The notes beneath the pieces were generated by a model. That model saw nothing but the letters and a program-made list of their open reading frames with translations, searched no databases and had not been told where the DNA came from. A DNA stretch of 64,000 nucleotides. Origin: Candidatus Jordarchaeales archaeon (GTDB lineage: Archaea; Asgardarchaeota; Jordiarchaeia; Jordiarchaeales; Freyrarchaeaceae). This document shows, piece by piece, positions 16,175 to 54,978 of the stretch. Where the stretch lies: contig JAWCFL010000006.1 in NCBI GenBank assembly GCA_038858525.1, positions 3,442 through 67,441 on the forward strand. Reading direction: 5' to 3'. A program made the translations under genes and the position numbers. The stretch's first letter is position 1, and the number at the start of each line of letters is the position of its first letter.

Positions 16175-16334
16175 ACCACTTATCTCCTTTTATTTAGGTT
16201 CCTCCCTTTGAAAGCTTAACTTTGCCTCAGTCAAATCCATTATAAGTTGAAAAGTTATCAATGAATATTAGTTAATCATCGGTAATCCGCTCCCCTCTAT
16301 ACTAGGATGGGGGGGAGTTGGGGGGGTCTGGAGC

Positions 16335-18668
16335 GTGTATCTGTTACTTATTAAAAGTAAGCTTAAAAGCGCTCTTCAAAATTCCGCATGCAGGATGTTT
16401 TTAATTCTTTCAGGCTGGTCTCTTGCCGTCTTTTCTATGTTGAGCGTAAGCGTTCGCGTTGAGTGTTTTGCCCCTCCAGTCTTAGTTCTATCTGCTTTGC
16501 CGTTTTCCCTCTTTTATCTTGTCGCCTCGGCAGTCTTACTATCTCTCCTTGTGGCTTTTGGAAATCGATCAAACTTGGATTATGTGCTGTGCTCAGGCAC
16601 GCAATTGGCTACATTGTACTTTGTGGCTTTTTTCGATGCTACGACGCTGATCCGCATAGGATCCTTGTCTCTCACCATATACGACGAACACACGCAGCAA
16701 TTACTCCTCGTTCTTCCTGCACTAATCTATTTTTCTTCTTGGCTTCGAGCTACAAGAAAATTTTCTAACCTAAAAGAATGTCTTCCTACTGCTTTATCAT
16801 CCCTCCTTCTCTTAGCTCTATACCTTTACAGTCCTCAATCCTTAACTTTAATCTGGTCCGACTTATGTCTAACTAAAATGCCTAGAATTACTCCTCCATC
16901 TGTCGCTACTGGGGCACTATTCGTCCTCGCTTCAACCTTCGTCGGCCTAAGACGTTATCAAAAAGCCTCAAAGGAGAAGCTGTCCGCCGTCTTGACTCTA
17001 ATGCCTGCGTTCCTCATAGCCCTATCCGGTTCGATTGCCGCTAAAACGACTGCATACATTATTGGCTATTACGACCACATTCTTCACTCCCTTTTTCCTC
17101 TACATTTCAACCTTTTTGTGTTTCTTTCATTCGTCTCATTCATGGGGGGCTTAGCTGTTCTTTCCACAAAAAGAGCAGAACTAGCAGCATCGATTTTTTG
17201 TATTCTCTTCGCCATTTCATATCCAGTCCTGCATAGAGTGATGACCAAGTTACTTATTCCGGTCTCTTTTGAGCCCGCCCCCCTTGTATGGCTCCCGGTG
17301 GCATTAATCTCCCTAATTCTCTTTCGCCCACATTCCTTCATTAAGAGCTCTTTTTTAGCAATAGCACTAGTCGCCTTAGTAGCCCAACCTCTAGTAACAA
17401 CTTATCCGTCAGAAATAGTGAATCCCTTTATGCTGTCTGCTAAGGAGGCTGAAGTCCGCGATAAAATAGACCCATCTATTATAAATATGGAGCAACCGCC
17501 AGAAGCACTGCCGGTAATACTACGCTTTCCTCACCCAGTAAATGAAGATGTGCTCTCTGAGCTGAATATGCTCCCATACTTCAAAATCTCAAGACACAAT
17601 GAAACACCTGCAATTTACAGTTCAAACGTCGGCTTCGTTTACGGAGTAATAAACACGTCGCTCTGTGACTGGCGGGAAGCTTCTAAATTCCTTGTAGAAA
17701 AATTCGGTCTCAAATACCTCCTCCTGGACAGAGGAATTGATCCGTCACAAATAATTAGCCTTCATCCAATAACTTATTCTGTTGACGCGGATGTGCTTCA
17801 CTCTTTAAACATAACTGGGAGAGGGGTGACGGTCGCAGTCATAGACTCAGGAATCAACGACGCAGACCCAGAAATAACAGGGAAAAACGAAGGACGCATA
17901 ATATACCAGGTGAACTTCATAACAAGAATGGAAGGCGACCCGGCTTTAGTTGGCGACTTGACTCCAACAGACGGAAAGTACCATGGAACATTTGTTGCGA
18001 GAACTATAGCTGGAGTTAGGGGGATAGCGCCCCACGCCAACCTCATAGACCTCAAAGTCCAGCTTGAGACGGGGGAAATGAGTTACGCAGACAGTTTGCG
18101 TGTAGCTGAAGCTATAGAGTGGTGCATAAGAAACAAGGATCGGTTCAATATCTCAGTGATAAACTTAAGTATGGGTAATAGAGAAGGGAGAGATGGAGGA
18201 CTTGTGTGTAAAGCAGTGGAACGAGCTAGCCTAGCAGGAATAATTTTCGTGGCGGCAGCCGGGTCGTATTCAAACCCATCTGAGAGCTATGCTAACCCCG
18301 TTTTTACACCCGGAGTAAGCAAACAAGCGATAGCTGTCGGATCAACGCAAAGCTATGACTGCGACCTTTGGGCCTGTTTCCCCGCAAGTGCTATAGGACC
18401 GGGATGGATCAAGCTTAAGCCGGATCTGGTGGCGCCGGGACCATACACTAGCGGGTCGACGCCTGTAGTTGCAGGCATAGCGGCCCTTCTATGCCAAGCC
18501 GCTGAAGAGCTAAACATACCTCAAAACACTAGACCTATCGCTGTAAAATATGCTTTGCTGCAAGGGGCCGTACAAAACGACTTAGGACTACCCGGGTTTG
18601 ACCCATTCTATGGTTATGGAAAAGCAAATGCTCTTTCATCATATCTAGCGCTAAAGACTCTTACATGA
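16335..18668 (+). CDS. Membrane-embedded subtilisin-like serine protease (S8), paralog B, in tandem with paralog A
   Basis: It has the same architecture and triad motifs as paralog A. The N-terminal membrane domain is divergent and the protease domain is highly similar to that of A. Confidence 0.75.
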   Translation: MYLLLIKSKLKSALQNSACRMFLILSGWSLAVFSMLSVSVRVECFAPPVLVLSALPFSLFYLVASAVLLSLLVAFGNRSNLDYVLCSGTQLATLYFVAFFDATTLIRIGSLSLTIYDEHTQQLLLVLPALIYFSSWLRATRKFSNLKECLPTALSSLLLLALYLYSPQSLTLIWSDLCLTKMPRITPPSVATGALFVLASTFVGLRRYQKASKEKLSAVLTLMPAFLIALSGSIAAKTTAYIIGYYDHILHSLFPLHFNLFVFLSFVSFMGGLAVLSTKRAELAASIFCILFAISYPVLHRVMTKLLIPVSFEPAPLVWLPVALISLILFRPHSFIKSSFLAIALVALVAQPLVTTYPSEIVNPFMLSAKEAEVRDKIDPSIINMEQPPEALPVILRFPHPVNEDVLSELNMLPYFKISRHNETPAIYSSNVGFVYGVINTSLCDWREASKFLVEKFGLKYLLLDRGIDPSQIISLHPITYSVDADVLHSLNITGRGVTVAVIDSGINDADPEITGKNEGRIIYQVNFITRMEGDPALVGDLTPTDGKYHGTFVARTIAGVRGIAPHANLIDLKVQLETGEMSYADSLRVAEAIEWCIRNKDRFNISVINLSMGNREGRDGGLVCKAVERASLAGIIFVAAAGSYSNPSESYANPVFTPGVSKQAIAVGSTQSYDCDLWACFPASAIGPGWIKLKPDLVAPGPYTSGSTPVVAGIAALLCQAAEELNIPQNTRPIAVKYALLQGAVQNDLGLPGFDPFYGYGKANALSSYLALKTLT
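17775..18064 (+). repeat. Second copy of the 290-bp identical tract (see 15284..15573)
   Basis: Direct comparison of the sequence. Confidence 0.9.
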
Positions 18669-29449: not shown

Positions 29450-29980
29450 TTATATTGCAACATCCTCCACGAGATTAAGCTTCTTTATTACAGCTTTAGC
29501 GGCCAAGTCGAAAGCGGTATCAACGTTTACATTGTTCTTTGCGCTCGTCTCAACATGGTAAAGGATCCCGTGTTCATTCATAAACTTTTTAACGTCATCC
29601 TCATCCACTTTCCTATCTAAATCACATTTTGAGCCGACTAGAATCATAGGAATTTCGCCAGCGTTTTTCTTCGTCAGCTCAAGCCACTCCCTCAGGTTGA
29701 AGAAAGACTCCCTTCTAGAGACATCGTACACTAGTAGGGCAACGTTCGCCCCTTTGCAAAAATCGGGGAGTATCTCTCTGAACCTCTCCTCGCCACCAAA
29801 GTCCCATATCATTAAAGTGACATCGTCACCTCCAACTTTAAGTGTCTTCTTTTCAAAGCCGACGCCTATAGTCATCTTACCATCAAAGTAAGTTCCATCA
29901 CAATACCTCTTCACAAGCGTAGTTTTTCCAACGCCTCCATCTCCCTCCACAAGAACTTTAATTATGATCAACATACACAC
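29450..29980 (-). CDS. Ras/Rab-like small GTPase
   Basis: G1 is GDGGVGKTT, G2 is a Thr in TIGVGF, and G3 is WDFGGEERF, a DxxGQ variant in which the catalytic Gln is replaced by Glu. G4 is GSKCD and G5 is ETSAK. 176 aa. Confidence 0.7.
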   Translation of the reverse strand: MCMLIIIKVLVEGDGGVGKTTLVKRYCDGTYFDGKMTIGVGFEKKTLKVGGDDVTLMIWDFGGEERFREILPDFCKGANVALLVYDVSRRESFFNLREWLELTKKNAGEIPMILVGSKCDLDRKVDEDDVKKFMNEHGILYHVETSAKNNVNVDTAFDLAAKAVIKKLNLVEDVAI

Positions 29981-39380: not shown

Positions 39381-40556
39381 TTAATTTTTTATAACTATCC
39401 GTTCCACCTCGGCTAAAGCCTCATGGGTGGCTTTCGCCGCCAACGGTAAAGGACGGCACATGGAGAGTTTTCCAGCTATGTTCCAAGCGGCGACCAAGTG
39501 TCTATCTGCTTGGAAGCCGCACCGCCTGCATTTGAAGACGTGCCCATTCGGCTTACTAATTTCGCCACACATCGATGTCCTAGAGGTGTTTTCAGGCTTA
39601 ACGGTTTCAGGCTTAAAGCCATGCTCCATCCCCTTATAGGAGATGTAGAACTGGATTCTTCTGAATGGTATGCTGTGGAGCCTCCTATTCATCACCCCAC
39701 CATACCGAATCCTCTCCCTTATGTGGGTGAGCTCCTCCATTACAGGCTTAACGTTTTCCTCGGCAACCACACCAGCTACAATCTTCGCCGCCCTATGAAG
39801 TACGTCGTTCACCCTCCGCCTCTCCCTCCCAGAATACTTCGATAACAGCTCAGCTTTTGTCTCCCCCGAGGTCTTACCCTGAATGCTCCTCCTCTTCCTG
39901 AAGTACCTGCCTCTAATGTGTTTCGCCTCACTTATATCTATCTTGATGAACCTGACCTTACCCGGCTTCACAACAGCCAAGTCTATACTACACTCGTTAA
40001 CATCGATGCCCAGCACGCCTTCGGACTTTCTCTCCTCAACCGTCCTCCTAAAAGTAACATGAAGATAGTATTCGTTATTAAATTTTACAAGCCTTGAGCC
40101 TTTAACCTGCCAACCCATGAACTTCATCGAATGCTCATGAACCCTGAACGGAATCGCGATGTGTCCTTTGTGCGTAGCCAGCCTTACGCATCCCCAACTG
40201 AACCAGAACAGGTGGGCGTCGTCCAAAAGAATGGTGTTTAGTTTCTCAATTCTTGGAGGGTTAATTTCCCCCCTCTTCCTAGAGAGCCTCCTGTAGGACT
40301 TGAATATGCTTAGAGCTTGTGTTATAGCCGTATAAATGTAATGGGATGGGTGGTTCGGATACTTCGTCCTCAGCTCCTTATAAATTGCTTCATGAAGCCT
40401 CCTACGTGAGGTCACATTTAGATTCATAGCCCTATCTAGGCATGCTTTAACCATTTCGGAATAGCTCTTGAAGAGATCCTCGAGAACGATTGCTTGTTCA
40501 TCGTTGGGCTGGAGCTTAAACTTGCAGGTCTCATTCAGCAATAAGCTGCCTGACAC
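39381..40556 (-). CDS. tnpB: TnpB (IS200/IS605/IS607-family OrfB; RuvC-like RNA-guided nuclease), apparently intact
   Basis: 391 aa. RuvC-I is GIDVNE and RuvC-II is a Glu in VMEELTHI. The zinc finger is CGEIS...CRRCGF, followed by RuvC-III ADRHLVAAWNIA. Confidence 0.85.
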   Translation of the reverse strand: MSGSLLLNETCKFKLQPNDEQAIVLEDLFKSYSEMVKACLDRAMNLNVTSRRRLHEAIYKELRTKYPNHPSHYIYTAITQALSIFKSYRRLSRKRGEINPPRIEKLNTILLDDAHLFWFSWGCVRLATHKGHIAIPFRVHEHSMKFMGWQVKGSRLVKFNNEYYLHVTFRRTVEERKSEGVLGIDVNECSIDLAVVKPGKVRFIKIDISEAKHIRGRYFRKRRSIQGKTSGETKAELLSKYSGRERRRVNDVLHRAAKIVAGVVAEENVKPVMEELTHIRERIRYGGVMNRRLHSIPFRRIQFYISYKGMEHGFKPETVKPENTSRTSMCGEISKPNGHVFKCRRCGFQADRHLVAAWNIAGKLSMCRPLPLAAKATHEALAEVERIVIKN

Positions 40557-40559
40557 TCT

Positions 40560-41164
40560 TAACCACCTTCTCGTACTTGTGGCTTCTCAAACCATAGAGC
40601 TTTTCAGCAAAGCTTGAAACCAAAGCGATGAGATCCTCTATTGATAGGCGTCTTTAGGCTCTTCACCATTAACGACTTTGATTTTTACGTTGTGAGGGGC
40701 GAAGTAACGCTCTAGGTGTTTGAAGCCGAACCTCGTAAGCCTATCCTTAAAAGCTATTCTTGAAAGCTATTATGACGGCTCCTACCTCTCTTTTCTCGAC
40801 CATATCAAAGATCTTGTTCAGGGACTTTCTGTTTTCGTTGAGCCTGCTTGCCGCGTCCTCTAAGATCGCGATAACTTCATTTTAGGTTTGGCGTAACTCG
40901 GTAAACTTTGCTTTTGCCTCTCTAGATCTCCTTTCTGTTTCTGGTCATGGGGGGGAACTCTGGTATAAATCACGGCTTTTTGGGCGTGTCTGGTTTGGCG
41001 ATGCCCATCAAACGTTCAACTTCACTTTCAGGTATCCTCCTCCTACCACCAACAGTCCTAACAACTCTAATTTTACCTTGTTTATCCCATTTTCTAAGCG
41101 TATTTGGGTGAATGCCTGATCTCTCGCAGGCTTCGCTGAGCGTCAGCAACCTCTCAATCATCAT
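40560..41164 (-). pseudogene. tnpA: Decayed IS607-type serine recombinase TnpA. The MerR-like HTH N-terminus is intact as a 64-aa ORF and the resolvase domain is broken by stops and frameshifts.
   Basis: The HTH is LTLSEACERSGIHPNTLRKWDKQGKIRVVRTVGGRRRIPESEV. Downstream frames translate to resolvase-like segments (AVIIAFK..LTRFGFKHLERYFAPHNVKIKVVNGEEPKD; EDLIALVSSFAEKLYGLRS) that are interrupted by stops. Confidence 0.6.
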
Positions 41165-41427
41165 ACAAAAATGTTAAGAAGTGTTATATAAAGTTATCTA
41201 TTCAGGAACTGATGCAAACCCTCACCGAAGCAGAACCTCTACTAGGCGACAACAATGGAGCAGCGCAGCCTCAAAGCGCCACTCATGTCCCCTCCTAAAC
41301 CAAGAATAATAGGTCACAGAGTGGGGATGCAGAATTTCCTCTCCTTCCCTGAGAAAGAAAGGTTGGCACTCCCTTTTTGGGTCTAAGTTTTTATTTTTCT
41401 TTTTCTAAGTTTAGTTGGGTGTGACCG

Positions 41428-43254
41428 TTGAGCGGGTTGAGTGACCGGAGGAGTCTCTTTTTCACTGATTTTGATGGGCGCTTCAGAGCTAGGCTGAGCA
41501 AGGTTGAGCCTGCTAGAGCTGCGTCGGACGAGCGGCTTGGCACGTCTGCTCCATACGCCTGCACGGTGCTCGTCGAGTACGATAGGGAGCTGCTGAGGCT
41601 TCTCGACGTCGGCATGCTTCTCGCAGTCAGGAACTTTAAGAGTGGGGGAGGAGTGGAGCGCTACACCCTCATGGAGCTGTCCCGCTTCTGGCCTGAGCAC
41701 TTCGGCCTCATGGGTGTTAAGGAGCACCAATATTTCCCCATGCAGTTCGAGGTTATAGAGCAAACAGTCCAGGACTGGGAGACTGAGGATAAGGCGACCA
41801 TGGCTATATACATTTCAGCGATACCTGTGAACTACGACCTCGTGGTCTCGGGCGAGTCTGCAGAATATGTTCGAGGCTTTTCCTATCCTGTAGTTGGCGA
41901 GCAGGTCTATGTCCTTAACAGGGAAATGATAAAGAGCATGTATAACCGAGGCGTTGCAGATAAGGTTCAGGGGGAAGGAGGGCACGTTGGGAGCCTGAAG
42001 ATGTTCGAGTCCGCAGGCGAGGAAATCCCCATATACGTCGACTATGAGTCCCTTGTCCGGTACCACTTTGGCATATTCGCCTTTACTGGAGGCGGGAAGA
42101 GCAACCTGCTCGCGACTCTTATAAGGAAGATAATGCGCCACACTCGGGACACGAAGGTCATAGTCTTTGATATATCCTGCGAGTATCCCTTCCTCCTCAT
42201 GGACCTATTAGCGGACCCATCGATTCCATCCATGGTTGTATTGGAACGGATGGTCGACTCGCCTCAGGAGTTCAGCCTCTCCATAGTTAAGCCGAAAAGG
42301 TACGAAAACGACCCGCGCGTCCTTAAGGGGCTCGGAAGGATCCTTTCTATGGGCAGAGTTACGCACCTTGTGAGGCGTAGCGTTGAGACGCCAACGTTCG
42401 CAGACATATTTCAGACACTCGATAGCTTAGCGAGCGCGAACGCTGATAAGCCAAACTACGTGAACGCCATCACCGAGATAAGAATGTTCACGGACAGCTA
42501 TATGACGTCTAGAGGTTACGTGGAGGAGGACGAGATAGACGAGGAGTACGTGAAACACCTGGACGAGCACGTGGACTACTTCAGGTCAACCTACTCGATC
42601 TACGAGAGAAGCAACCTTTACGGGTGGATTTCCTCCCTGAAAACGATATACTCGAAGATCAAGGAGAGGAGCGCTGAGGAGGAGGTTGCAGGGGGAGTCG
42701 CCCCGAAAACAATATCCGAAAAGCTGTTCGAGAGCGACCTAAGACTCATATGCCTATCGATAGGGGACCCCGAAACCATCAAGCAACTGACGATAAACAC
42801 CGTCAGAAGCGCCCTATCTAGGAGAAAGAGGGAGTTCAGCGTTAAGCCATATATCCTCTTCGTCTGGGATGAAGCGCAGGAGTTCGCCCCCGCCCCCGAC
42901 AAGGCAAGAGGAGTAGAGAAAACATGTTCCGAGGAGGTTGAAAGGCTCCTCAGGCAAGGGCGAAAGTACGGGTTGGGAGGATGCCTCGTAACGCAGCGCA
43001 TAGCCCACCTGAACACCTCAGCCCTACAGCAACTCCACACATACTTTGTCGGCACTCTCCCGAGACCCTACGATAGGGGACTGATCAGCAACACATTCAT
43101 GGTGGACAGGGAGATCCTCGAAAGGACACTGGAATTCACGCCCGGAGAATGGCTCCTCTCAAGCTACATCGCAACAGGAATAACCAACGTGCCGATATTC
43201 ATAAAGTCGGAAGACACCGAGCAACAACTAGACAAATTCATGAACACATTATGA
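41428..43254 (+). CDS. HerA-like (DUF87, FtsK-HerA superfamily) ATPase with an N-terminal HAS-barrel-like domain
   Basis: Walker A is FAFTGGGKSN and Walker B is ILFVWDEAQEF. The C-terminal GRKYGLGGCLVTQRIAHLNTSALQQLHTYFVGTLPRPYD matches the HerA consensus. 608 aa. Confidence 0.7.
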   Translation: MSGLSDRRSLFFTDFDGRFRARLSKVEPARAASDERLGTSAPYACTVLVEYDRELLRLLDVGMLLAVRNFKSGGGVERYTLMELSRFWPEHFGLMGVKEHQYFPMQFEVIEQTVQDWETEDKATMAIYISAIPVNYDLVVSGESAEYVRGFSYPVVGEQVYVLNREMIKSMYNRGVADKVQGEGGHVGSLKMFESAGEEIPIYVDYESLVRYHFGIFAFTGGGKSNLLATLIRKIMRHTRDTKVIVFDISCEYPFLLMDLLADPSIPSMVVLERMVDSPQEFSLSIVKPKRYENDPRVLKGLGRILSMGRVTHLVRRSVETPTFADIFQTLDSLASANADKPNYVNAITEIRMFTDSYMTSRGYVEEDEIDEEYVKHLDEHVDYFRSTYSIYERSNLYGWISSLKTIYSKIKERSAEEEVAGGVAPKTISEKLFESDLRLICLSIGDPETIKQLTINTVRSALSRRKREFSVKPYILFVWDEAQEFAPAPDKARGVEKTCSEEVERLLRQGRKYGLGGCLVTQRIAHLNTSALQQLHTYFVGTLPRPYDRGLISNTFMVDREILERTLEFTPGEWLLSSYIATGITNVPIFIKSEDTEQQLDKFMNTL

Positions 43255-43692
43255 AAAACTAGAGAAAAATGGAATTTTTGACCAAAAACTCGCAGACCTC
43301 TCGCACAAAAAAGTTTTTCAACCCGCCTCTCAGTTAACGGAAGCCACTCGAAACACATCAATCTCGCCTCCGATGAACATACCCCCACATTCATAGGCAG
43401 CACCCCCTACTCTTTACGTGTAGCATTCCCGCTTTAGCCGCCCCCATCCCAGGCAGCAATTAAAGTTAAGTCATCCTCGCTGAACTCTTACGTTCTTAAT
43501 TTTTCAACAAGATGTTGAGTCTACTACTTGGCCACCATCAATGAAAACCTTCTTTTTGCAAAAATCGCATAAAAAAGAGACACTAATGCTTTCTCGTCAC
43601 ACATCGCTTAAATCTTTCGCTTAACTACTGCATGATTTGAATGTTTTTATGAGAAAATATATTTTCAAAAACCATTTATAAAAAATCGGTGA

Positions 43693-44169
43693 GTGATGGA
43701 GGATGAATTTATGCACGAAGCGCAAAAGAGAATTGTGTGCATGTTTTTCGTATTGCTTTTAGCATCCGCCCTAACACTCAGCACGGCAGCCTCCTCTGTG
43801 AGCGCAGACACCCAACAGGCTCTTGCTCCTAGTAGCACTGCATCAGCTCAAGCCGCCCAAGGTGGAATTTCGCCTTCTGCTTTACCACTATGCTTCGACT
43901 TGATAGGAGCATTATCCGCCGCTCTGGGTGCAGTAATTAACGCCATTGTTAGTGGAGTTCTCGGAGCAATGGGCAACGTGATAGGCGCCTTAATGGCTGG
44001 GCTTGCCAGCTTCATCGCCGGAATAATTGCCAGCATAGTCTCTGCTGTTTTAGGCGTTATTGCCACAGTAATCGTGGCGATAATCGCAGCTTTAATCGGA
44101 GGGATATTCGGGGGAGAAAAACCCCAAAGCGAGCAACCCGGAGAAAACGCGACAGCACATTTTCTCTAA
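43693..44169 (+). CDS. Secreted or membrane glycine-zipper hydrophobic peptide (158 aa; signal peptide plus GxxxG/AxxxA-rich helices)
   Basis: The N-terminal signal-like segment is CMFFVLLLASALTLSTAASSVSA. A stretch of about 75 aa follows (LIGALSAALGAVINAIVSGVLGAMGNVIGALMAGLASFIAGIIASIVSAVLGVIATVIVAIIAALIGGIFGG), made of stacked small-xxx-small motifs. Confidence 0.4.
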   Translation: MMEDEFMHEAQKRIVCMFFVLLLASALTLSTAASSVSADTQQALAPSSTASAQAAQGGISPSALPLCFDLIGALSAALGAVINAIVSGVLGAMGNVIGALMAGLASFIAGIIASIVSAVLGVIATVIVAIIAALIGGIFGGEKPQSEQPGENATAHFL

Positions 44170-44745
44170 AATCTCTCTGAAGAATCGCTGAACGAGCCTG
44201 ACTTCAAAAGCGTTAAGCATCGAGGACTTTGGTTAAATCCATCACGTGCTTTTTTCATTCTTTTTGTTACATCCAAAATATTGAGACATACAAATAAATT
44301 GAGATATAAAGTGAGGAATAAACTGCAAAGTGCATCGTCAATCAATAATAGCATTTTTGGCCCTAGATTCTTGAACGGCAAGGTTCCTCGTAGTTAACAC
44401 GGAATTTCTCCGCCGTTCCTAAAATCTGACCTGGCAACTGCACTTCACCATTCCCCACCATAGTTACAATTTTTTAACCTTCAACTTACTTGGTTTTTCT
44501 GAGAACGAGCACAGAAACGCACACTGAAAGACCTCGAAGTAGTTTATCATCAGCGAATTCAAATGCAGGCGTTCAGCGCCTTAGCGCACCTTAAAGCCCT
44601 AAAGTTAACATTAACTGTTTCTAGGTTGCTAAAATATTCTCCATGAACACTCCACAAGAGAAAAATCATCTTCGCAAAGGGGGGTTAATAAACAGTTTCT
44701 ATCTAATATAAAGTTTATTATCTTGCATATAACTTTGGTGACCTT

Positions 44746-46760
44746 GTGCCTGAGAAGCTCTACACTAATGGTGAGGTTGCGAGGACTTTCGGGGCTTCCT
44801 ATGTCGCTGTTAAGAAGTGGGCTTATTCTGGTAAGGTTAGGCTTATTAAGACGCCTGGCGGGAAGTATAGGTTTCCCGAGAGCGAGGTAAAGCGGCTTCT
44901 TGGAGGGCGGACTCCGAAGGGAAGGGCTGTGATTTACGACAGAGTGGGTGCAGCTGACCAGTGGGAGGATTTGGAGAGACAGAAGCAAAGGCTCATTAGG
45001 TATGCCAAGAGTAGCGGCTACAGGATATAGTGGTTCTTGAGGACATAGCTTCCGGGTTAAACGAAGAATAGGAAGAGCTTGATGAGGCTTTTTGAAGTGG
45101 TTTCACAGAAACAAGTGGAGGTCGTCTTCATAACATAGGGATAGGCTTACAAGGTTCGGCTTCAAGTATTTAGAGGCATTCTTTAATTCTCATGGCTGTA
45201 GAATAGAGTGCTTAGATGCTGAAGAAGTTAAGGAGCCACAACAAGAGCTTATAGATCTAATAGCCATAGTTACGAGCTTTGCTGGGAGAATCTATGGAGC
45301 GAGAAGCAATAAGAAGCGGAGGGTTGTGGAGGCTGTTGAGCAGACGATTAGAAACAATTAAACTAGCGGCGAGCTTCAAGCTGAATGGTTTTGTGCCAGA
45401 CCGAGTTATTCCAAGCCTACAGGCAGATATTAAGCGAGCTCTTAGACTATGCCTGCGATAGGGGAGTCTCAAGCTTTAAGCGCTTAAAGTCCGAGAAGTA
45501 TTGTGACTTAAGGGCGAGGTACCCGAGCTTGCCTATATCAGCAGTTTCGTGGTATATAGGTTTAAATAGAGGTTGATTACTTTGTTCTTAATGATGTCTA
45601 CTCTAAAACCTGCCCAGTCTGTTCAGGAAGCATGGCTTCCTATCCGGGCAGGATATTAAACCTTCAGATGCGGGGAGAAGGGTTCCCCCAAAGAGCCCTC
45701 AATGAGTTAATCGAGGGGGAAGGGTTAAGTAGGAATGAAGGTAACAATTCACTATGTATTCCTACTTAACTCAGAACCCTTCACACTACATTTATACTGC
45801 ATGCCCGATGGCATGCTTAATATACAAATCCTTCAGGAAGCTGAAAGGGAGGAATAAAGTTAGGTTAGGTCTGAAGCCGCTATTCAGGAAAGACGTTATA
45901 ATGCTCGACGACCACCTATTCAGCATGAACCTCGATAAATGGGAAGCTCCCGTTGCAACGGAAGCTGGGAGAATAGTGTTCAGAATCCTTCATGGAACAT
46001 GTCATGAGAAGTTCAGGGGCATGAAGGTTGGGCAAGCATGGCTCGTCAGAAGGCGCGATGGCCATTATTTGAAGGTTGTCTTCAGCAAGACCGTAGAGGT
46101 TGCTGAACCTAATGGGAAAAAATTGGCTATAGACGTAAATGAAGCAGCGTAGCCTACGGCACGGAGAACAAGATAGGCGTCCTTAAGACTGGCGAGAAAG
46201 CCATAAGGACGGCATACTTCCTGAAGATGCGTAGACTCCAATCCAAACTGAGGCTCAACGAGAAGCCGATACTTGCGAAGTATAGGGGTAGAGAGACGAG
46301 GAGGGTGGAGGCAATCCACCATAAAATCGCAAACAGTCTCATCGAGGAGGCTAAGAGACAGGGCTGCACAACAAAATAGTCCTCGAAGACCTCAAGCACA
46401 TCAGAAGACGCATAAGAAAATCTAAAGCTCTTAACGGCAGATTGAATAGGTGGGGCTTTCAGAAAACTCCAGCACATCATAGAATACAAGGCTAGCTTAA
46501 TAGATTAAGCGTATTTTATGTTAAAGCTGGGAGCACATCAAGTCTATGCCCAAAATGCAGGGGCAGGCTAAGCCCAAGCGGGTATAGGCTGATGAAGCGC
46601 CCAAGATGCGAACTGGAGGAGGACAGAGATATAGTAGCCGTGAAGAACCTCCTCCAGAGAATCCAGATAGATGTGCCGGCTTCACCCGTTCACGGCGAAA
46701 GCCCTCCCATGAAAGGAGGAAAGAAGAAATGAAAGTTAACACTGGATCAGAACGGCAGGT
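44746..46760 (+). mobile_element. Decayed IS607-like element B, inverted relative to element A. It has a TnpA remnant (44746..45030 HTH plus YDRVGAADQ, with the catalytic Ser replaced by Gly) and a TnpB remnant (45754..46740, N-terminal fragment plus a frameshifted zinc-finger region).
   Basis: The HTH MPEKLYTNGEVARTFGASYVAVKKWAYSGKVRLIKTPGGKYRFPESEVKRLL parallels the element A TnpA. The TnpB-like fragment is KLAIDVNE, with a later CPKCRGRL...RCELEEDRDIVAVKNL in another frame. Confidence 0.55.
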
Positions 46761-46912
46761 GAGCAAGAGAAGAAGAATCTATCACCTCTTTGTCGCAGCG
46801 AAAACATGCAACTTAATTGGAACAGCGTTTTTAGACAGGAACATTTGCTCTCACGATACATCCTTTTTAGTTACATGTCAGCCACATCTGTCCCTAGGAA
46901 CTCACTTTCCCT

Positions 46913-47971
46913 CTAATATATTTCTTCTTCACCTTTTTTTCCCTCCCCGGCCATTACCTTGACCTTCTCTTCCTTGACCTTCTCTTCCTTGACCTTCTCT
47001 TCCTTGACCTTCTCTTCCTTGACCTTCTCTTCCTTGACCTTCTCTTCCTTGACCTTCTCTTCCTTCCCGATTTTCTTTCTCAGCTTCTCATCCAGTATTT
47101 TTAGTACCTCTATGGCATACAGGCTTCTGCCGCAGTAAGGGCACTCGATGACGTTGCCGCTTTCAGGAAGCTTTAGTTTTCCTCCACAATGCGGGCATGC
47201 AATCTCCTCAATTATTAATCCTCTGGTTTTTAGCAGCAAGCGTATATGTTCGTAGCTCTCTTTTTCCTCAAAAAACACGCCGATTTCTGAAGCAAGCTGA
47301 TCAAGACGCTCATCGAAATCTTTCCTGAGTAACTCCACTTTCTCACCCTGAGCTTTCACTATGTTCGGCCACTCCGCTTTAAGCTTCCTGTATTTATATT
47401 CAACATTGTCTAAATTCGAACGCAGTTCGTCATTAAGCTTATCTACGGCCTTTTTTATCTCTCTTCCTTCCTTCTTCAACATTTTTATTTCCTTACGAGC
47501 TGTGGGACTTATCAGTGGAGACAACACATAAAGAATGTGGGCACCGTATAACGCTAACCCAAATAACAGACCAGGCAATCCATAGCTATAAATAAGTATA
47601 ACAGTAACAAGGAAAATTGAGGTATGCAAGCAGCACACAAAGAGCTTTCTAAACCTATCCTTTGCTTGATTCACGTACATCATTAACGCGTCTTCTAACT
47701 CGTGAAGCTTATAAGTTAAAGCCTCTATTTCCGGCGTATACTTATTTCGTAATTCGTCGCATTCTTTTACTTTCGCGTAATCTAAGCCTCGCACCATTAA
47801 CTCATACTTTCTGCTTTCATCATTAAGGACACGTAAATCCTCGGCCAGCTTCCTTAACTTGCCTCTTAGCTCAGGCGCAAGCTCCGTGTACTCGAAACCG
47901 TACCCCAACTTCGACTCAAGCATCTTTTTTATTTTTCTCTCGTTCTCCCTAACCCGCTCATCATAATACAC
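46913..47971 (-). CDS. Coiled-coil membrane protein with a C-terminal zinc ribbon and a 7x EEKVK tandem repeat
   Basis: It has a long heptad-like N-terminal region and central TM helices (LFVCCLHTSIFLVTVILIYSYGLPGLLFGLALYGAHILYVLSPLI). The zinc ribbon is CPHCGGKLKLPESGNVIECPYCG, followed by (EEKVK)x7. Confidence 0.5.
   Translation of the reverse strand: MYYDERVRENERKIKKMLESKLGYGFEYTELAPELRGKLRKLAEDLRVLNDESRKYELMVRGLDYAKVKECDELRNKYTPEIEALTYKLHELEDALMMYVNQAKDRFRKLFVCCLHTSIFLVTVILIYSYGLPGLLFGLALYGAHILYVLSPLISPTARKEIKMLKKEGREIKKAVDKLNDELRSNLDNVEYKYRKLKAEWPNIVKAQGEKVELLRKDFDERLDQLASEIGVFFEEKESYEHIRLLLKTRGLIIEEIACPHCGGKLKLPESGNVIECPYCGRSLYAIEVLKILDEKLRKKIGKEEKVKEEKVKEEKVKEEKVKEEKVKEEKVKEEKVKVMAGEGKKGEEEIY
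46963..47067 (-). repeat. Perfect 15-nt tandem repeat x7 (cttgaccttctcttc on the plus strand, gaagagaaggtcaag coding), encoding (EEKVK)7
   Basis: Direct reading of the sequence. Confidence 0.9.
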
Positions 47972-48490: not shown

Positions 48491-50074
48491 GTGGAGGAGA
48501 ACATGAAGAGAGCGGCATGGAGAACTTACATGGCAGTGTTGCTAGTAGGAGTGCTGGCGCTCACATTGGTAGCAATGCAAATATCAACGCCAGCACAAGC
48601 ACAAACACAACGAACGATACAAAAGGCTCAAATGACATGGGCAAAAACGTATGGAGGAACGTATGGCGACTCCGCTTTTCGTGTGGCTGTTGATGGTCAG
48701 GGGAACATCATAGTGGTAGGCGAAACATGGTCCTTTGGTGCTGGTGGTAGTGACGTTTGGGTCTTGAAGCTTGACCCTAACGGGGACCCAACATGGCAGA
48801 AGGCGTATGGAGGAACGTATGGCGACTCCGCTTTTCGTGTGGCTGTTGATGGTCAGGGGAACATCATAGTGGTAGGCGAAACATGGTCCTTTGGTGCTGG
48901 TGGTAGTGACGTTTGGGTCTTGAAGCTGAACGCCTCAGGTAACGTCATCTGGCAGAAAGGATACGGAGGAGAGAGCAAAGATTACGCTTGGGGTGTTGCT
49001 GTTGATTCTCAGGGAAATATAATAGTAGCGGGAGGAACTGAATCCTTTGGTGCTGGTGGTAGTGACGTTTGGGTCTTGAAGCTGGACCCTAACGGGGAAC
49101 CAACATGGCAGAAGACATATGGGGGAGCGAGCAACGAGTGTGCTCTTGATGTTGCCTTTGATGTTCAAGGAAACATTATAGTGTCAGGGTACACTTACTC
49201 CTTTGGTGCTGGTGGCAGTGACGTTTGGGTCTTGAAGCTGGACCCTAACGGGGAACCAACATGGCAGAAGACGTATGGAGGAATAAACGACGACTATGCT
49301 TCTGGCGTTACTGTTGATGCTCAGGGGAGCATAATAGTAGCGGGAGGCACAAACTCCTCTAGAGCTGGGGGATGGAACGTTTGGGTTTTGAAGCTTAACA
49401 GCTCAGGAGACACCATATGGCAGAAAACGTATGGGGAAGCGAAGACTGACGTTGCCTATGATGTTACTGTCAACGCCCAAGGAAACATTATAGTGTCAGG
49501 GTACACTTACTCCTTTGGTGCTGGTGGCAGTGACGTTTGGGTCTTGAAGCTGGACCCTAACGGGGAACCAACATGGCAGAAGACGTACGGAGGAACTTAT
49601 GAGGACTGTGCTATGGGAGTTGCCGCCGATAATGAAGGTATAATTGTGGCTGGGTTTACGTCATCCTTTGGTGCTGGGCTTCGAGACCTCTGGGTTTTGC
49701 GTATAAGTTCGAATGGTGAAATTTACAATTCAATATCCGAATTCACCATAAAAAATACTAGCGTGGCGCCTACAACAACAGCGGCTTCCCCCTCACCTAC
49801 TAACGCTGCAATTTTATCGACGAACGCGAACTTGAGCGATACGCAAGCAATAATAACAAATACCAACGCGGCAATAAACACGCAGGCACCGCCTTCCCCA
49901 TCCTTTTCACCACCTATTGAGGAGCAGTTTTTGCTTCTGCTTCTAGTCCTCGGGTTGTATGACTCGGTGGAGAATGCATCTCGAAGTAGTGTGGTTTCCA
50001 TTGGCTTTTTCATAATTCTTTTTGGCGACATCAGTTTGTACGTTTTTCTTTATCGAAGGTGGAGACTTGCGTGA
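48491..50074 (+). CDS. Secreted beta-propeller (SBBP-like) repeat protein with a Thr/Ala/Ser/Pro-rich stalk and a C-terminal hydrophobic anchor
   Basis: It has a signal peptide and about 8 repeats of 52 aa (YGGTYGDSAFRVAVDGQGNIIVVGETWSFGAGGSDVWVLKLDPNGDPTWQK), then a low-complexity stalk, then the LLLLLVLGL and FFIILFG hydrophobic segments. Confidence 0.6.
   Translation: MEENMKRAAWRTYMAVLLVGVLALTLVAMQISTPAQAQTQRTIQKAQMTWAKTYGGTYGDSAFRVAVDGQGNIIVVGETWSFGAGGSDVWVLKLDPNGDPTWQKAYGGTYGDSAFRVAVDGQGNIIVVGETWSFGAGGSDVWVLKLNASGNVIWQKGYGGESKDYAWGVAVDSQGNIIVAGGTESFGAGGSDVWVLKLDPNGEPTWQKTYGGASNECALDVAFDVQGNIIVSGYTYSFGAGGSDVWVLKLDPNGEPTWQKTYGGINDDYASGVTVDAQGSIIVAGGTNSSRAGGWNVWVLKLNSSGDTIWQKTYGEAKTDVAYDVTVNAQGNIIVSGYTYSFGAGGSDVWVLKLDPNGEPTWQKTYGGTYEDCAMGVAADNEGIIVAGFTSSFGAGLRDLWVLRISSNGEIYNSISEFTIKNTSVAPTTTAASPSPTNAAILSTNANLSDTQAIITNTNAAINTQAPPSPSFSPPIEEQFLLLLLVLGLYDSVENASRSSVVSIGFFIILFGDISLYVFLYRRWRLA
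48651..48929 (+). repeat. Two consecutive, near-identical 156-nt repeat units within the SBBP gene. Shorter identical about 70-nt segments recur near 49045, 49205 and 49511.
   Basis: Direct comparison of the sequence (48651..48773 against 48807..48929). Confidence 0.85.
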
Positions 50075-51745: not shown

Positions 51746-54289
51746 ATGAGTGTGTGTTACGCTGACCGGTTTTACTCGAAAGACGAAATCTTATCACTTC
51801 TCCACCCTAAAGTTGCTAGGTGGTATTCTCGCTTTGAGCCCACTCCTCCCCAGTCGATGGCTATCCCGCTAATCCACCGCGGCGAGAACGTGCTTATCAC
51901 CAGCCCGACTGGGACGGGTAAGACGCTTGCAGCCTTCCTCACCATAATGAGCGAGCTCGCCTTCATGGAGTGGAACGGCGTCCTCGAGGACAAGGTCTAC
52001 GCCGTCTACGTAAGCCCACTGAGGGCCCTCAACAATGATATAAAGCGTAACCTGCTGTCCCCCCTTGAGGAGATGGGGCTTGACTTCGTAAGAGTTTCGG
52101 TGAGGACGGGGGACACCCCTGCGAACGAGAGGCAAAAAATGCTCAGGAAGCCTCCTCATATACTGATAACGACCCCTGAAACCCTAGCCATAGTGCTTAA
52201 CGCGACGAGGTTCAGGGACAAGCTTGAGCCGCGCTGGGTCGTAGTCGACGAGATCCACGCTCTCTTCGAGAGCAAGAGGGGTGCTCACCTTTCGCTTAGC
52301 CTCGAAAGGCTAAACCACCAAGCGTCATTTCAGAGGATAGGGCTCTCAGCCACAATATGGCCTCTCGACGAGGTTGCCCGCTTCCTCGTGGGGGAGGGAA
52401 GAAGTTGCGTGGTCGTTAACGCCTCATACGCCAAGGAGAAGGATATAAGGGTTGAAACTCCCGTCCCGGACCTCGTCCACATTGAAGCGGAGAAGCTTAA
52501 CAGGGAAATGTATAGAAGGCTGGGCGAGATAATAGACGAGCACAGGACGACGCTCGTCTTCACGAACACGCGTTCCGGAGCCGAGAAGGTCGCCTTCCAC
52601 CTTCAGGACAGCGTCGACATAGATGATATCGGAACGCACCACGGTAGCCTCTCGAGGGATGTCAGACTGGACGTCGAGGAGAAACTTAAGAACGGCGAGC
52701 TCAAGGTGGTTGTGAGCTCTACGAGCCTCGAGCTGGGAATAGACATAGGATACATAGACTGCGTCGTTCAGATAGGGTCCCCGAAGAGCATAACGAGGTG
52801 TCTTCAGAGGATAGGGAGGGCGGGCCACAGGATAAGGGATGTTTCGAAGGGCGTGCTGCTATGCATGAGTCACGATGACCTTTTAGAGTGTGCTGTTATG
52901 GTTAAGTGCGCCTATGACGGCGTCCTTGACAGGGCTTCCCATCCTCAGAACGCCCTTGACGTCCTCGCCCAGCACTTGGTGGGGATGGCTTTAGAGCGGA
53001 AGTGGAATGCTGAGGAAGCGTTTAACGTTGTGAGAAGGTCTTACAGTTTCAGAAGCCTCTCTTGGGATGACTTTGAGAGCGCCCTGAAGTATCTGTCCGG
53101 CGGATATGGGCTTGAGCCATACAAGGTTTACGGCAAAGTCTGGTACGACGAGCACGACAGGGTTTTTGGTAGGCGGGGGAAGTATGCGAGAGTAATATAC
53201 ATGCTCAACCTTGGAACCATACCGGACGAGGTGGCGATAAAGGTTTACGCGCTCCCCGGCAAGAGATACGTAGGCAACATTGAGGAGGAGTTCCTCGAGA
53301 GGCTCGAGCCCGGCGACATATTTGTCCTCGGAGGAAGAGTCTACGAGTTCGTCAGGGCAAGCGGGCTGAACGCCTACGTTAAAGACGCCAAGGGCAAGAA
53401 GCCCACTATACCGTCTTGGTTTAGCGAGATGCTTCCGCTGAGCTTCGACCTAGCGTGCGAAATTAGGCGCTTCATAGAGAAAGTCTTCAGGGGGGAAATA
53501 GGCGAGGAGGAGCTGAAAGAGGAGTACAGGGTTAGCGATTGGGCTGCCAAGGCGATCCTGAACTTCCTGCGGCTCGAGAAAGAGTTTCTTGGAAAGCTTG
53601 GAATAGAGGTTAACGGGAGAAGCCTGCTCGTGGAGGAGTTTGAGGACGAGGATGGAAGGCAGAACTTTCTGTTCATGTTTCTCTTCGGTAGGCGTGTCAA
53701 CGATGCCTTATCGAGAGCTTATGCGTGGGTTGCGAGCAGAGAAGTAGGGGCTAACGTTGGCCTAGCAGTCACCGACCACGGCTTCATGCTCACTGTTCCC
53801 CGCAAGAGAAAGCTCGATGTCCGTCTCGTTGTAAGCAAGGTTTCCTCATCCAACCTTAGAGACGTCCTCTCGAAGGCCATCAGGAGCACTGAAATGTTCA
53901 GGAGGAGGTTCCGCCACGTTGCTGCTAGGAGCTTCATGGTTCTCAGAAACTACAAGGGGCACGAGATAGGGGCTAGAAGACAGATGAGGAACGCGGAGGT
54001 CCTCATGAAAGCTGTCTCAGAGTTCGACGGCTTCCCAATAGTAAAAGAGACCGAGAGAGAAATAATGGAGGACGTCATGGACGTCAAGAACGCCATTGAA
54101 GTACTTAAGTCAATAGAAAGAGGGGAGCTGGAGATAATCCACGTCAAAACCCCGGTTCCCAGCCCATTAGCTCACGGAGTATACCTTTCAGGCCTTTCAG
54201 ACGTGGTCCTTATGGAGGACAGACTCAAGCTGCTGGAATACCTCTACCAGAGAGTGGTGGAGGAGTCCTCTTGTGGGGAAAACCACTAG
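51746..54289 (+). CDS. lhr: Lhr-type DExH-box helicase (Lhr-core)
   Basis: Motif I is TSPTGTGKT, the DExH box is VVDEIHAL and motif VI is QRIGRAGHR. The Lhr-typical N-terminus is LHPKVARWYSRFEPTPPQSMAIP. 847 aa. Confidence 0.8.
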   Translation: MSVCYADRFYSKDEILSLLHPKVARWYSRFEPTPPQSMAIPLIHRGENVLITSPTGTGKTLAAFLTIMSELAFMEWNGVLEDKVYAVYVSPLRALNNDIKRNLLSPLEEMGLDFVRVSVRTGDTPANERQKMLRKPPHILITTPETLAIVLNATRFRDKLEPRWVVVDEIHALFESKRGAHLSLSLERLNHQASFQRIGLSATIWPLDEVARFLVGEGRSCVVVNASYAKEKDIRVETPVPDLVHIEAEKLNREMYRRLGEIIDEHRTTLVFTNTRSGAEKVAFHLQDSVDIDDIGTHHGSLSRDVRLDVEEKLKNGELKVVVSSTSLELGIDIGYIDCVVQIGSPKSITRCLQRIGRAGHRIRDVSKGVLLCMSHDDLLECAVMVKCAYDGVLDRASHPQNALDVLAQHLVGMALERKWNAEEAFNVVRRSYSFRSLSWDDFESALKYLSGGYGLEPYKVYGKVWYDEHDRVFGRRGKYARVIYMLNLGTIPDEVAIKVYALPGKRYVGNIEEEFLERLEPGDIFVLGGRVYEFVRASGLNAYVKDAKGKKPTIPSWFSEMLPLSFDLACEIRRFIEKVFRGEIGEEELKEEYRVSDWAAKAILNFLRLEKEFLGKLGIEVNGRSLLVEEFEDEDGRQNFLFMFLFGRRVNDALSRAYAWVASREVGANVGLAVTDHGFMLTVPRKRKLDVRLVVSKVSSSNLRDVLSKAIRSTEMFRRRFRHVAARSFMVLRNYKGHEIGARRQMRNAEVLMKAVSEFDGFPIVKETEREIMEDVMDVKNAIEVLKSIERGELEIIHVKTPVPSPLAHGVYLSGLSDVVLMEDRLKLLEYLYQRVVEESSCGENH

Positions 54290-54978
54290 AGAACCTGGGC
54301 CTCATGATAGAAGATGTGGGCGTGCTCGCCGTAGCAGACCTCCACCTGGGTTACGAGGACGTGCTGAGGGAAGAAGGCCTCTTTATCACCAGCCAGTACC
54401 CCAAAATAAAGGAAATGATCCTCGAAATGATAAACACTCACTCCCCCGACATCCTCATAATCAACGGAGACTTCAAACACGAGTTTGGAGAGGCAAGCCT
54501 CCAAGAGTGGGTTGAGGTGAGAGACCTCATCGAAGCCCTCCTGAAAGAGAAAGTTAAACTCGCATTCATTCGGGGCAACCACGATAACTTCATCGTCACC
54601 CTCATGAAGAAATACGAGCTCCCGCTAGAAGTCGAAGTCAAAATAGAAGACTACCTTTTCCTCCACGGGCACCGCACCCCCTCACAAACCGCCGAAAAAA
54701 TAGTGATAGGACACGAGCACCCTTCAGTTCTGTTAAGGGACGAGTTCGGGACAAAGTTCAGGTACAAAGCCTTCCTCATGGGAAACTACGCCGAAAAGGA
54801 GCTGGTAGTACTGCCCTCAATGCACCCCCTAGCCACCGGAACCCTGATAAACAAAGAACGGGACTACATGTCCCCGCTGCTGAAATTCACAGACGTCGGA
54901 GAATTCACACCATACCTGGTTGAGCCAGGAGTTACCGTGAAAAAATTTCCAAAAGTAAAGAACCTCCGCGACATATGA
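54271..54978 (+). CDS. Calcineurin-like metallophosphoesterase (MPE) partnered with Lhr
   Basis: DLHLG, GDFKHE, GNHDN and GHEHP metallophosphoesterase motifs. It overlaps the lhr stop. Confidence 0.7.
   Translation: MWGKPLENLGLMIEDVGVLAVADLHLGYEDVLREEGLFITSQYPKIKEMILEMINTHSPDILIINGDFKHEFGEASLQEWVEVRDLIEALLKEKVKLAFIRGNHDNFIVTLMKKYELPLEVEVKIEDYLFLHGHRTPSQTAEKIVIGHEHPSVLLRDEFGTKFRYKAFLMGNYAEKELVVLPSMHPLATGTLINKERDYMSPLLKFTDVGEFTPYLVEPGVTVKKFPKVKNLRDI

Follow-up and report, generated by a model that had tools for sequence, protein, structure and literature searches.

Why does an intact gene for a HerA-like ATPase stand between insertion sequence (IS) copies, apart from any nuclease gene, in the chromosome of an Asgard archaeon? 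The gene lies on contig JAWCFL010000006.1 of a Candidatus Jordarchaeales archaeon (assembly GCA_038858525.1), in a stretch of 64,000 nt that was analyzed at its full length and is called the window here. A preliminary description of this DNA had presented the open reading frame (ORF) as a HerA-like ATPase that lacks its canonical nuclease and repair partners and may be an accessory paralogue with another function, such as defense, pumping of plasmid or viral DNA, or conjugation. We propose instead, with a probability of roughly 0.7, that the ORF supplies the ATPase to a conserved archaeal module of two genes, and that its partner was displaced by an IS607-like rearrangement. The gene would then not be a lone recruit to a new function.

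Results

Identity of the ATPase

The Walker A, Walker B and C-terminal motifs quoted in the preliminary description were all located in the 608-aa ORF (Table 1), and its HerA assignment was borne out by profile and structure searches alike. Pfam assigned DUF87, the "Helicase HerA central domain" (PF01935), with an E-value of 9.6e-17 and 62.3 bits against a cut-off of 23.2, and the same domain was matched in 47 of 47 family members. An AlphaFold model built with 47 homologues as input had a predicted local distance difference test score (pLDDT) of 77 and a predicted template modeling score (pTM) of 0.70. When it was compared with the PDB using Foldseek, the top 50 matches were all HerA proteins, at template modeling (TM) scores of about 0.45-0.5 for this multi-domain model. 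The best matches were the T. kodakarensis HerA-NurA complex (9x1l, E 9e-19) and S. solfataricus HerA (4d2i), and bacterial anti-phage HerA proteins ranked next (E 1e-15 to 1e-11). Because of the DUF87 match and the Foldseek matches, we consider the ORF a real HerA-fold ATPase. It also retains every invariant column of the 47-sequence family alignment.

The protein scored far below the cut-offs of the curated HerA groups. The NCBIfam equivalogs for canonical HerA, NF040819 and NF040937, gave 65.1 bits (cut-off 970) and 37 bits (cut-off 800), and those for anti-phage HerA, NF042943 and NF042944, gave 40.3 bits (cut-off 800) and 44.3 bits (cut-off 850). Judged by these profiles, the window ATPase is neither the canonical repair HerA nor a curated anti-phage HerA, and in this respect the earlier view of a non-canonical HerA stands.

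Bathyarchaeia, Lokiarchaeia and other archaea contain many homologues of about 620 aa that are 52-58% identical over their full length. Jordarchaeales/Freyarchaeota have the closest ones, at 79-100% identity, and among GTDB species representatives none of the loci found exceeded 92% identity. The wider family of ~600-aa proteins extends from 55% down to 28% identity and comprises 160 clusters at E < 1e-30. Canonical HerA was not among the distant full-length relatives tested, since none of ten at 28-35% identity (from Marsarchaeota, Nitrososphaerales and unnamed metagenome sequences) passed a HerA equivalog. The ATPase tree is coherent with archaeal lineages. Genomes of Jordarchaeia/Freyarchaeia carry one of two ATPase clades that are about 58% identical (loci L097-L100 versus L094-L096), the second of which groups with a Lokiarchaeia sequence.

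A NurA-like Partner Throughout the Family

In nearly every family locus, a ~628-aa gene lies directly upstream of the ATPase gene on the same strand. Such pairing was found in 138 of 140 informative loci, with the two genes adjacent in 131 and separated by 0.8-2.2 kb in 7. Among 76 loci of GTDB species representatives the partner was adjacent in 65 and within about 1-2 kb in 4, making 69 of 70 informative loci, and the sole partner-less locus with room upstream has a truncated HerA. The 80 loci from Joint Genome Institute (JGI) metagenomes, collected with the partner as query, gave the same proportion (69 of 70 informative; ATPase adjacent in 66, nearby in 3, absent in 1). Outside Jordarchaeales the partner gene overlaps the ATPase start by 26 nt; within the Jordarchaeales clade the spacing is 95-360 nt even without an IS. 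The statement that the ATPase lacks its partners thus describes the window, where Pfam identified no NurA, Mre11 or Rad50 among the main ORFs, and does not extend to its relatives. Being without a nuclease is not a trait of this ATPase family.

The partner is predicted to adopt a NurA fold into which a winged helix is inserted. The Pfam NurA profile gave a weak match spread over aa 69-581. An AlphaFold model of the partner (pLDDT 82, pTM 0.85) had NurA structures from T. kodakarensis, P. furiosus and S. solfataricus as its top 10 matches in the PDB (E 6e-9 to 9e-6), and MarR-type winged helices were the next fold matches, corresponding to the inserted domain. Residues D74, E171, D192 and H569 are invariant in 45 partner sequences, and they may resemble the acidic/His catalytic set of P. 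furiosus NurA. No PADLOC model matched the partner.

No conserved third gene was found beside the pair in the neighborhood clusters. The commonest neighbors are a 2-oxoacid:ferredoxin oxidoreductase operon and ribosomal protein S7, in subsets of Bathyarchaeia.

Pairs were also seen in metagenome-assembled genomes (MAGs) labeled Desulfobacterales, Verrucomicrobia, Dormiibacterota or "bacterium" (L104, L117, L119, L126, L162). Those placed in the tree nest among Bathyarchaeia: L117, L119 and L126 hardly differ from soil Bathyarchaeia and L104 (Desulfobacterales) sits on a longer branch, the partial locus L162 having been left out. These loci are probably mis-binned archaeal contigs (one label reads "bacterium Centralia"), and we do not take them as a sign that the pair was transferred to bacteria.

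Probable Displacement of the Partner in the Window

The closest strain is another Jordarchaeales MAG (GCA_038884015.1, locus L008), whose HerA protein is 100% identical to that of the window. On its single 224-kb contig the order is partner, IS607-like element with TnpB on the minus strand, HerA, a small ORF and an IS remnant, with the partner 2 kb upstream of HerA; the contig continues through Lhr, trpEGDCFBA, a Prismane-domain gene and HEPN/NTase to a second IS of opposite orientation. Positions 39365-47427 of the window can be aligned with L008, and the homology starts exactly at the outer end of the left IS. In L008 and four other loci (L009, L010, L011, L014) this end lies 8 nt past the stop codon of the NurA-like partner; in the window it adjoins the edge of an M24 peptidase pseudogene, which takes the position of that stop codon. 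Because the twin locus keeps its partner 2 kb upstream, the isolation of HerA in the window stems from a rearrangement that is recent, local and associated with the IS, or else from a join made during assembly. In either case the population does have the partner: a sister metagenome contig (L014) carries it with 98.7% identity and breaks off after the first 237 nt of the IS. The proposal of a paralogue recruited elsewhere therefore loses its footing, the separation being local and recent.

The left IS itself was compared with other copies. Identity between the window and L008 is 99-100% to the right of about 41165 and 80-95% inside the IS, so that the window IS must be a different copy at least in part. 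Its outer 535 nt are 96-97.6% identical to M24-linked copies versus 90% to the L008 copy, and positions 40601-41000 find their best match in the HerA-adjacent copy of L008 (90.6%, versus 81-82% for the others).

A third assembly, GCA_038846665.1, matches the window at 99.9% identity between 52.7 and 64 kb. It contains the ~29-30-kb segment that begins with HerA in the window; an intact IS607-like copy and then the M24 region come after it, and the orientation is the reverse of that in the window. The M24 region is joined via the IS to the HerA end of the ~30-kb segment in the window, and to the opposite end in GCA_038846665.1. As a simplest single event, this is best explained by inversion of the segment through recombination between its two inverted IS copies, and we infer that the inversion is real rather than an assembly choice. 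The partner would then lie about 8.5-10.5 kb past the right end of the window, on the minus strand and beyond the far IS. A simple deletion between direct IS copies was rejected, since the segment, with its trp operon, is still there and is collinear with L008 and L180. In addition, IS607-like copies in near-identical MAGs (L170, L171, L172, L180, L181, L182) have differing genes on one flank, namely HEPN/NTase with the trp operon, an HMGL-like gene, a PDDEXK gene, HisRS or an abhydrolase, a sign that the IS copies have reshuffled the genome of this species more than once, or that its assemblies differ.

A serious alternative, if an unlikely one, is that the partner is missing through an assembly artefact. 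The contig would have been joined across a repeated IS607-like element, the real order being IS plus NurA-like gene as in GCA_038884015.1. All short-read contigs of the window's strain type break at both IS elements, and the L014 contig that bears the partner ends inside the IS. The window IS is moreover a mosaic of copies without a close match, and its unusual indels and at least four tnpA frameshifts are what a collapsed or mis-polished repeat might show. However, the IS copies differ by about 10-20%, which is usually enough for an assembler to separate them, and an outer part like the M24-linked copies combined with an inner part like the HerA-linked copy is the pattern of a true recombinant. 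Several independent MAGs with different, fully spanned IS flanks also demonstrate that real rearrangements occur.

State of the ATPase Gene

The ATPase gene differs from that of L008 by 6 synonymous and 0 non-synonymous substitutions, and the ratio of non-synonymous to synonymous rates (dN/dS) against five more distant Jordarchaeales relatives is 0.03-0.07. It is under strong purifying selection. The unique spacer between the IS and the start codon is 99.5-100% identical to that of L008 and L005, and 92% of the 50 nt nearest the start codon are conserved in Jordarchaeia QC4 (L012), a locus without IS. An A/T-rich, TATA-like stretch lies at about 41385-41399, roughly 30 nt before the TTG start. 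Given this box, the conserved 50 nt and the 95-360 nt spacing at loci without an IS, the gene may have its own promoter. A TTG start at the same position, just after an in-frame stop, appears to be general in the Jordarchaeales-clade loci (L001, L006, L007, L008, L012, L013 and the window) and represents an unusually conserved rare start codon.

It could be argued that the gene is a functionless relic, decaying since it was uncoupled from the nuclease and from the operon promoter. The IS does split the operon, the window has further separated the gene from its partner, and the surroundings are rich in pseudogenes (M24, tnpA and a TnpB fragment). Yet the reading frame is intact, all family-invariant residues are retained, the differences from L008 are exclusively synonymous and the proximal upstream spacer is conserved. 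These observations make a relic quite improbable, with the caveat that the separation event is too young for decay to show.

Even less probable, to the point of being hardly credible, is an accessory HerA paralogue that is truly an orphan and now acts by itself or with a newly acquired partner, for example in conjugation or in the pumping of plasmid or viral DNA. Such a role would agree with the absence of a nuclease gene from the 64 kb, with an intact gene that has its own conserved upstream spacer, and with the weak FtsK/TrwB-type Pfam matches seen in many family members. It is contradicted by a pairing that is essentially obligate family-wide and by the strain that encodes the identical protein with its partner 2 kb away. 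Relatives of the ATPase were found on no viral contig, phage or plasmid in IMG/VR, INPHARED and PLSDB, and the window has no conjugation or secretion genes near the ATPase, so the earlier suggestion of a plasmid, viral or conjugative role found no support. Because there are 0 amino-acid changes relative to L008, the separation is also too recent for neofunctionalization.

Genomic Context and IS607-Like Elements

Coordinates of the features discussed are collected in Table 1. As the preliminary description had noticed, the ATPase gene sits between IS remnants, which we could specify as two IS607-like copies in inverted orientation. By their gene content, a TnpA with a MerR-type helix-turn-helix (HTH) and a serine recombinase followed by TnpB, the flanking elements are assigned to the IS607 family. 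In the window Pfam identified a MerR/HTH_17 ORF and TnpB (Cas12f1-like_TNB, OrfB_IS605), and the frameshifted resolvase-like sequence of the left TnpA can be read in three frames. Intact IS607-like relatives in L170 and L172 consist of a 208-aa MerR+Resolvase TnpA and a 390-aa TnpB. The right remnant is linked to the left IS by inverted repeats I1-I3 and is also present in L008. The perfect hairpin at the outer end of the left IS occupies a position where an omega-RNA or a terminator-like element might be expected.

Table 1. Features of the window around the HerA-like ATPase gene (nucleotide positions of the 64,000-nt window unless given as aa)
Feature	Position	Strand	Remarks
Intact M24 Xaa-Pro peptidase	37362-38426	+	Convergent (tail-to-tail) with the frameshifted M24 copy
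M24 (Xaa-Pro) peptidase pseudogene	38430-39364	-	5'-truncated by IS, frameshifted, abuts IS outer end
IS607-family element, left	39365-41225	-	TnpB intact, TnpA broken
Perfect hairpin AACCGTTGTCGGATAGTTAATTTTTTATAACTATCCG = GGATAGTTA-N7-TAACTATCC	39365-39410		Outer IS end, just past tnpB 3' end
TnpB of left IS	39381-40556	-	Intact, 391 aa
TnpA of left IS	about 40530-41164	-	64-aa MerR-type HTH ORF left; serine-recombinase part has at least 4 frameshifts
Segment S	41226-64000		Left ~23 kb of ~29-30 kb; flanked by inverted IS607-like copies in related strains
Unique spacer	41226-41427	+	Between IS inner end and ATPase start codon
HerA-like (DUF87) ATPase	41428-43254	+	Intact ORF, 608 aa, TTG start
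Beta-rich N-domain	about aa 1-190	+	Predicted, model of HerA-like ATPase
Walker A FAFTGGGKSN	aa 217-226, nt 42076-42105	+	RecA-like core of HerA-like ATPase
Walker B VWDEAQEF	aa 479-486, nt 42862-42885	+	RecA-like core of HerA-like ATPase
Conserved C-terminal block	nt 42958-43074	+	HerA-like ATPase
GRKYGLGGCLVTQR	aa 511-524	+	Motif in HerA-like ATPase
LPRPYD	aa 544-549	+	Motif in HerA-like ATPase
Ala/Gly/Ile/Val-rich ORF	43696-44169	+	157 aa, hydrophobic leader, no family match
Degenerate IS607-like remnant, right	44658-46770	+	Inverted relative to left IS; outer boundary approximate
HTH ORF of right remnant	44746-45030		Pfam HTH_17
TnpB N-terminal fragment of right remnant	45754-46152		

The 157-aa hydrophobic ORF always accompanies HerA on a 3.4-4.4-kb inter-IS island, and its L008 version has 143 aa. 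Within segment S the gene order is HerA, Lhr-MPE and trpEGD, continued past the window by trpCFBA, a Prismane-domain (PF03063) gene and HEPN/NTase. The remaining window sequence is chromosomal DNA of an ordinary kind, with genes for aminoacyl-tRNA synthetases, aRF1, ADP-forming acyl-CoA synthetases and subtilases, and it also codes for small GTPases with Roadblock proteins, the Lhr helicase with its phosphoesterase, and trpEGD.

Several neighboring genes deserve a brief record. In strains L172 and L173, ~400 nt more of the M24 pseudogene is missing. The Lhr-type helicase (847 aa; DEAD, WH_Lhr and DEAD_assoc domains) overlaps a Metallophos phosphoesterase gene at 51746-54978 (+); Lhr-MPE is a known DNA-repair gene pair, found here 8.5 kb downstream of HerA. 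A 352-aa zinc-ribbon protein (46913-47971, minus strand) has a C-terminal (EEKVK)n tract, for which a 15-nt unit is repeated perfectly in tandem (46957-47076); the repeat varies in length between strains (a 52-column gap relative to L008). A 527-aa secreted or membrane-anchored protein (48491-50074, plus strand) is built of near-identical ~50-aa beta-propeller repeats (DUF5122) with the motif GGSDVWVLKLDPNGxPTWQKTYGG. Asgard-type small GTPases (Arf/Ras-like) at 35611-36174 and 29450-29980 form a cluster, within about 29450-36651, in which they are interleaved with three Roadblock/LC7 (LAMTOR-like) genes at about 34312-34614 (projected from L170), 34707-35174 and 36280-36651; the domains were assigned from the gene tables for loci that are nearly identical. 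At 13883-18668 (plus strand), two subtilisin-like proteases of ~770 aa in tandem have Peptidase_S8 in the C-terminal third and long N-terminal regions without a family.

Discussion

The module to which we assign the window ATPase would consist of a long NurA-fold nuclease (~628 aa, with a winged helix inserted in the nuclease fold) followed by a ~610-aa HerA-like protein. By analogy with the T. kodakarensis complex, in which 6 HerA and 2 NurA subunits are in contact through the HAS domains, dsDNA (double-stranded DNA) is fed in an ATP-driven manner and NurA alone is weak (PMC12977600), six ATPase subunits would form a ring and pass dsDNA through its central channel at the expense of ATP. The DNA would be fed to a nuclease dimer bound on the N-terminal (HAS-like) face of the ring. 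The divergent N-domain of the ATPase would then be a surface co-evolved with an unusually large partner, whose inserted winged helix, as modeled, probably adds DNA binding. A 6:2 complex, DNA feeding and a role in repair may be shared with the characterized systems. As to the history of the locus, an IS607-like element would first have inserted in the spacer between the two genes of the pair in this lineage, and inversion of the ~30-kb segment between inverted IS copies would then have joined HerA to the M24 pseudogene. The IS607-like elements are the cause of the isolation of the ATPase gene and no part of its function; they share the gene content of the IS607 family, but in the window frameshifts disrupt the left TnpA and no more than a remnant is left of the right copy.

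With canonical HerA-NurA (S. solfataricus, P. furiosus, T. kodakarensis and Deinococcus) the window family shares the HerA fold, the Walker A and B motifs, the C-terminal block, and a NurA-fold partner encoded by an adjacent, co-oriented and often overlapping gene. The mechanism, too, is likely to be shared, with a motor of six subunits delivering DNA to a dimeric nuclease. However, the window ATPase is only about 14% identical to canonical HerA and misses the NCBIfam equivalogs by a wide margin. Canonical HerA has an N-terminal HAS barrel, whereas the N-domain of this family is not recognized as such by sequence. The partner is about 1.5-2 times longer than canonical NurA and has the inserted winged helix. 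Linkage to mre11-rad50, as known for canonical HerA, was not seen in the window or in the neighborhood clusters of the family, in which only the NurA-like gene is linked. A HerA-NurA module in the broad sense is therefore present at the level of the family and not in the window itself.

What the pair does is a narrower question. We lean toward chromosomal DNA-end processing or repair, in preference to defense. Immediate neighbors of the pair in 69 species are mostly housekeeping genes (ribosomal protein S7, 2-oxoacid oxidoreductase and, twice, ATP-dependent DNA ligase), only about 5 of 100 matched a PADLOC model at E <= 1e-10, and synteny is stable within Jordarchaeales and within one group of Bathyarchaeia.

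The competing view, that the NurA (winged HTH)-HerA pair is an anti-virus or anti-plasmid defense threading foreign DNA into the nuclease like the bacterial HerA-effector systems, appears unlikely to us, but it has substance. The best PADLOC profile for the ATPase is "HerA, type III co-evolved" (PDLC01055; 134.6 bits, E 1e-39), whose source is a set of HerA/NurA pairs with a link to type III CRISPR-Cas systems (Shah et al., 2018, clusters 57/58; PMC6546367). Like the window family, those clusters are a HerA plus a NurA. The match is partial, in two stretches, to a model without a curated cut-off, and the partner, in contrast to the ATPase, has no PADLOC match. Neither the window nor the conserved and immediate neighbors of the pair yielded any cas genes, CRISPR arrays not having been explicitly searched for. 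Individual loci do have defense-like neighbors, a SNF2/DUF1156 methylase/DUF499 cluster at L002 and a toxin-antitoxin pair at L003, and the T. kodakarensis study raises destruction of foreign dsDNA even for canonical HerA-NurA (PMC12977600). The bacterial anti-phage HerA-effector systems (SIR2-HerA/Nezha, DUF4297-HerA and TdpAB) have the HerA hexamer scaffold in common with the window family. Their effector is SIR2, DUF4297 or TdpB and not a NurA-like protein, their equivalogs gave only 40-44 bits with the window ATPase, and the window family is instead archaeal, chromosomal and set in a housekeeping context. The lack of a conserved third gene, the stable synteny and a tree that follows archaeal lineages likewise speak against defense, and the defense role offered in the preliminary description was not confirmed, the genomic context not being that of a defense island.

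A more far-reaching interpretation is that TACK and Asgard archaea possess in this pair an uncharacterized machine for DNA processing that differs from classical HerA-NurA, either the only end-resection motor of these lineages or a system against foreign DNA fixed in the chromosome. In this Jordarchaeales species the two genes might lie at the two ends of the ~30-kb segment between inverted IS607-like copies, and its flipping would couple or uncouple them within the population. We regard this as improbable.

Several points weigh against the assignment of the window ATPase to a displaced module and against the role proposed for it. A tblastn search of the window with four partner sequences gave no match, and the predicted position of the partner lies outside the 64 kb. 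The M24-IS-HerA junction was recovered in no independent assembly, as 13 of 13 contigs with the window-type downstream ORF are islands of 1-4.4 kb broken at IS elements. The left IS is a mosaic that no reference copy matches above 97.6%. Analyses of diagnostic sites and of segments were made for a clean crossover inside it, and no breakpoint is claimed; since the interior is mosaic, no crossover could be mapped, and an assembly chimera or collapsed consensus is therefore possible. A single inversion may also be too simple, because other strains show further and different IS flanks. On the protein side, Pfam found a HAS barrel in none of the 47 family members, and similarity to solved HerA proteins begins near residue 135, with none over the first ~135 residues. 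Yet the model places seven beta strands in that region. The earlier remark that the N-terminus bears only a loose resemblance to a HAS barrel is apt. Finally, the choice between repair and defense is made from genomic context alone.

As far as the window is concerned, the outcome mainly corrects an earlier view: IS activity, or assembly at repeats, accounts for a HerA that had seemed an orphan, and recruitment to a new function does not. The locus is at the same time a compact example of IS607-like copies reshuffling the chromosome between near-identical strains. More widely, a pair of HerA-like ATPase and double-size NurA-fold nuclease is present in Bathyarchaeia, Nitrososphaerales and several Asgard lineages. 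We found no solved structure closer to it than about 14-16% identity, and no study of the long-NurA/HerA-like subfamily in the searchable literature; the pair is uncharacterized but mechanistically unsurprising. If it does carry out DNA-end processing in these lineages, it would bear on how recombination is initiated in archaeal relatives of eukaryotes.

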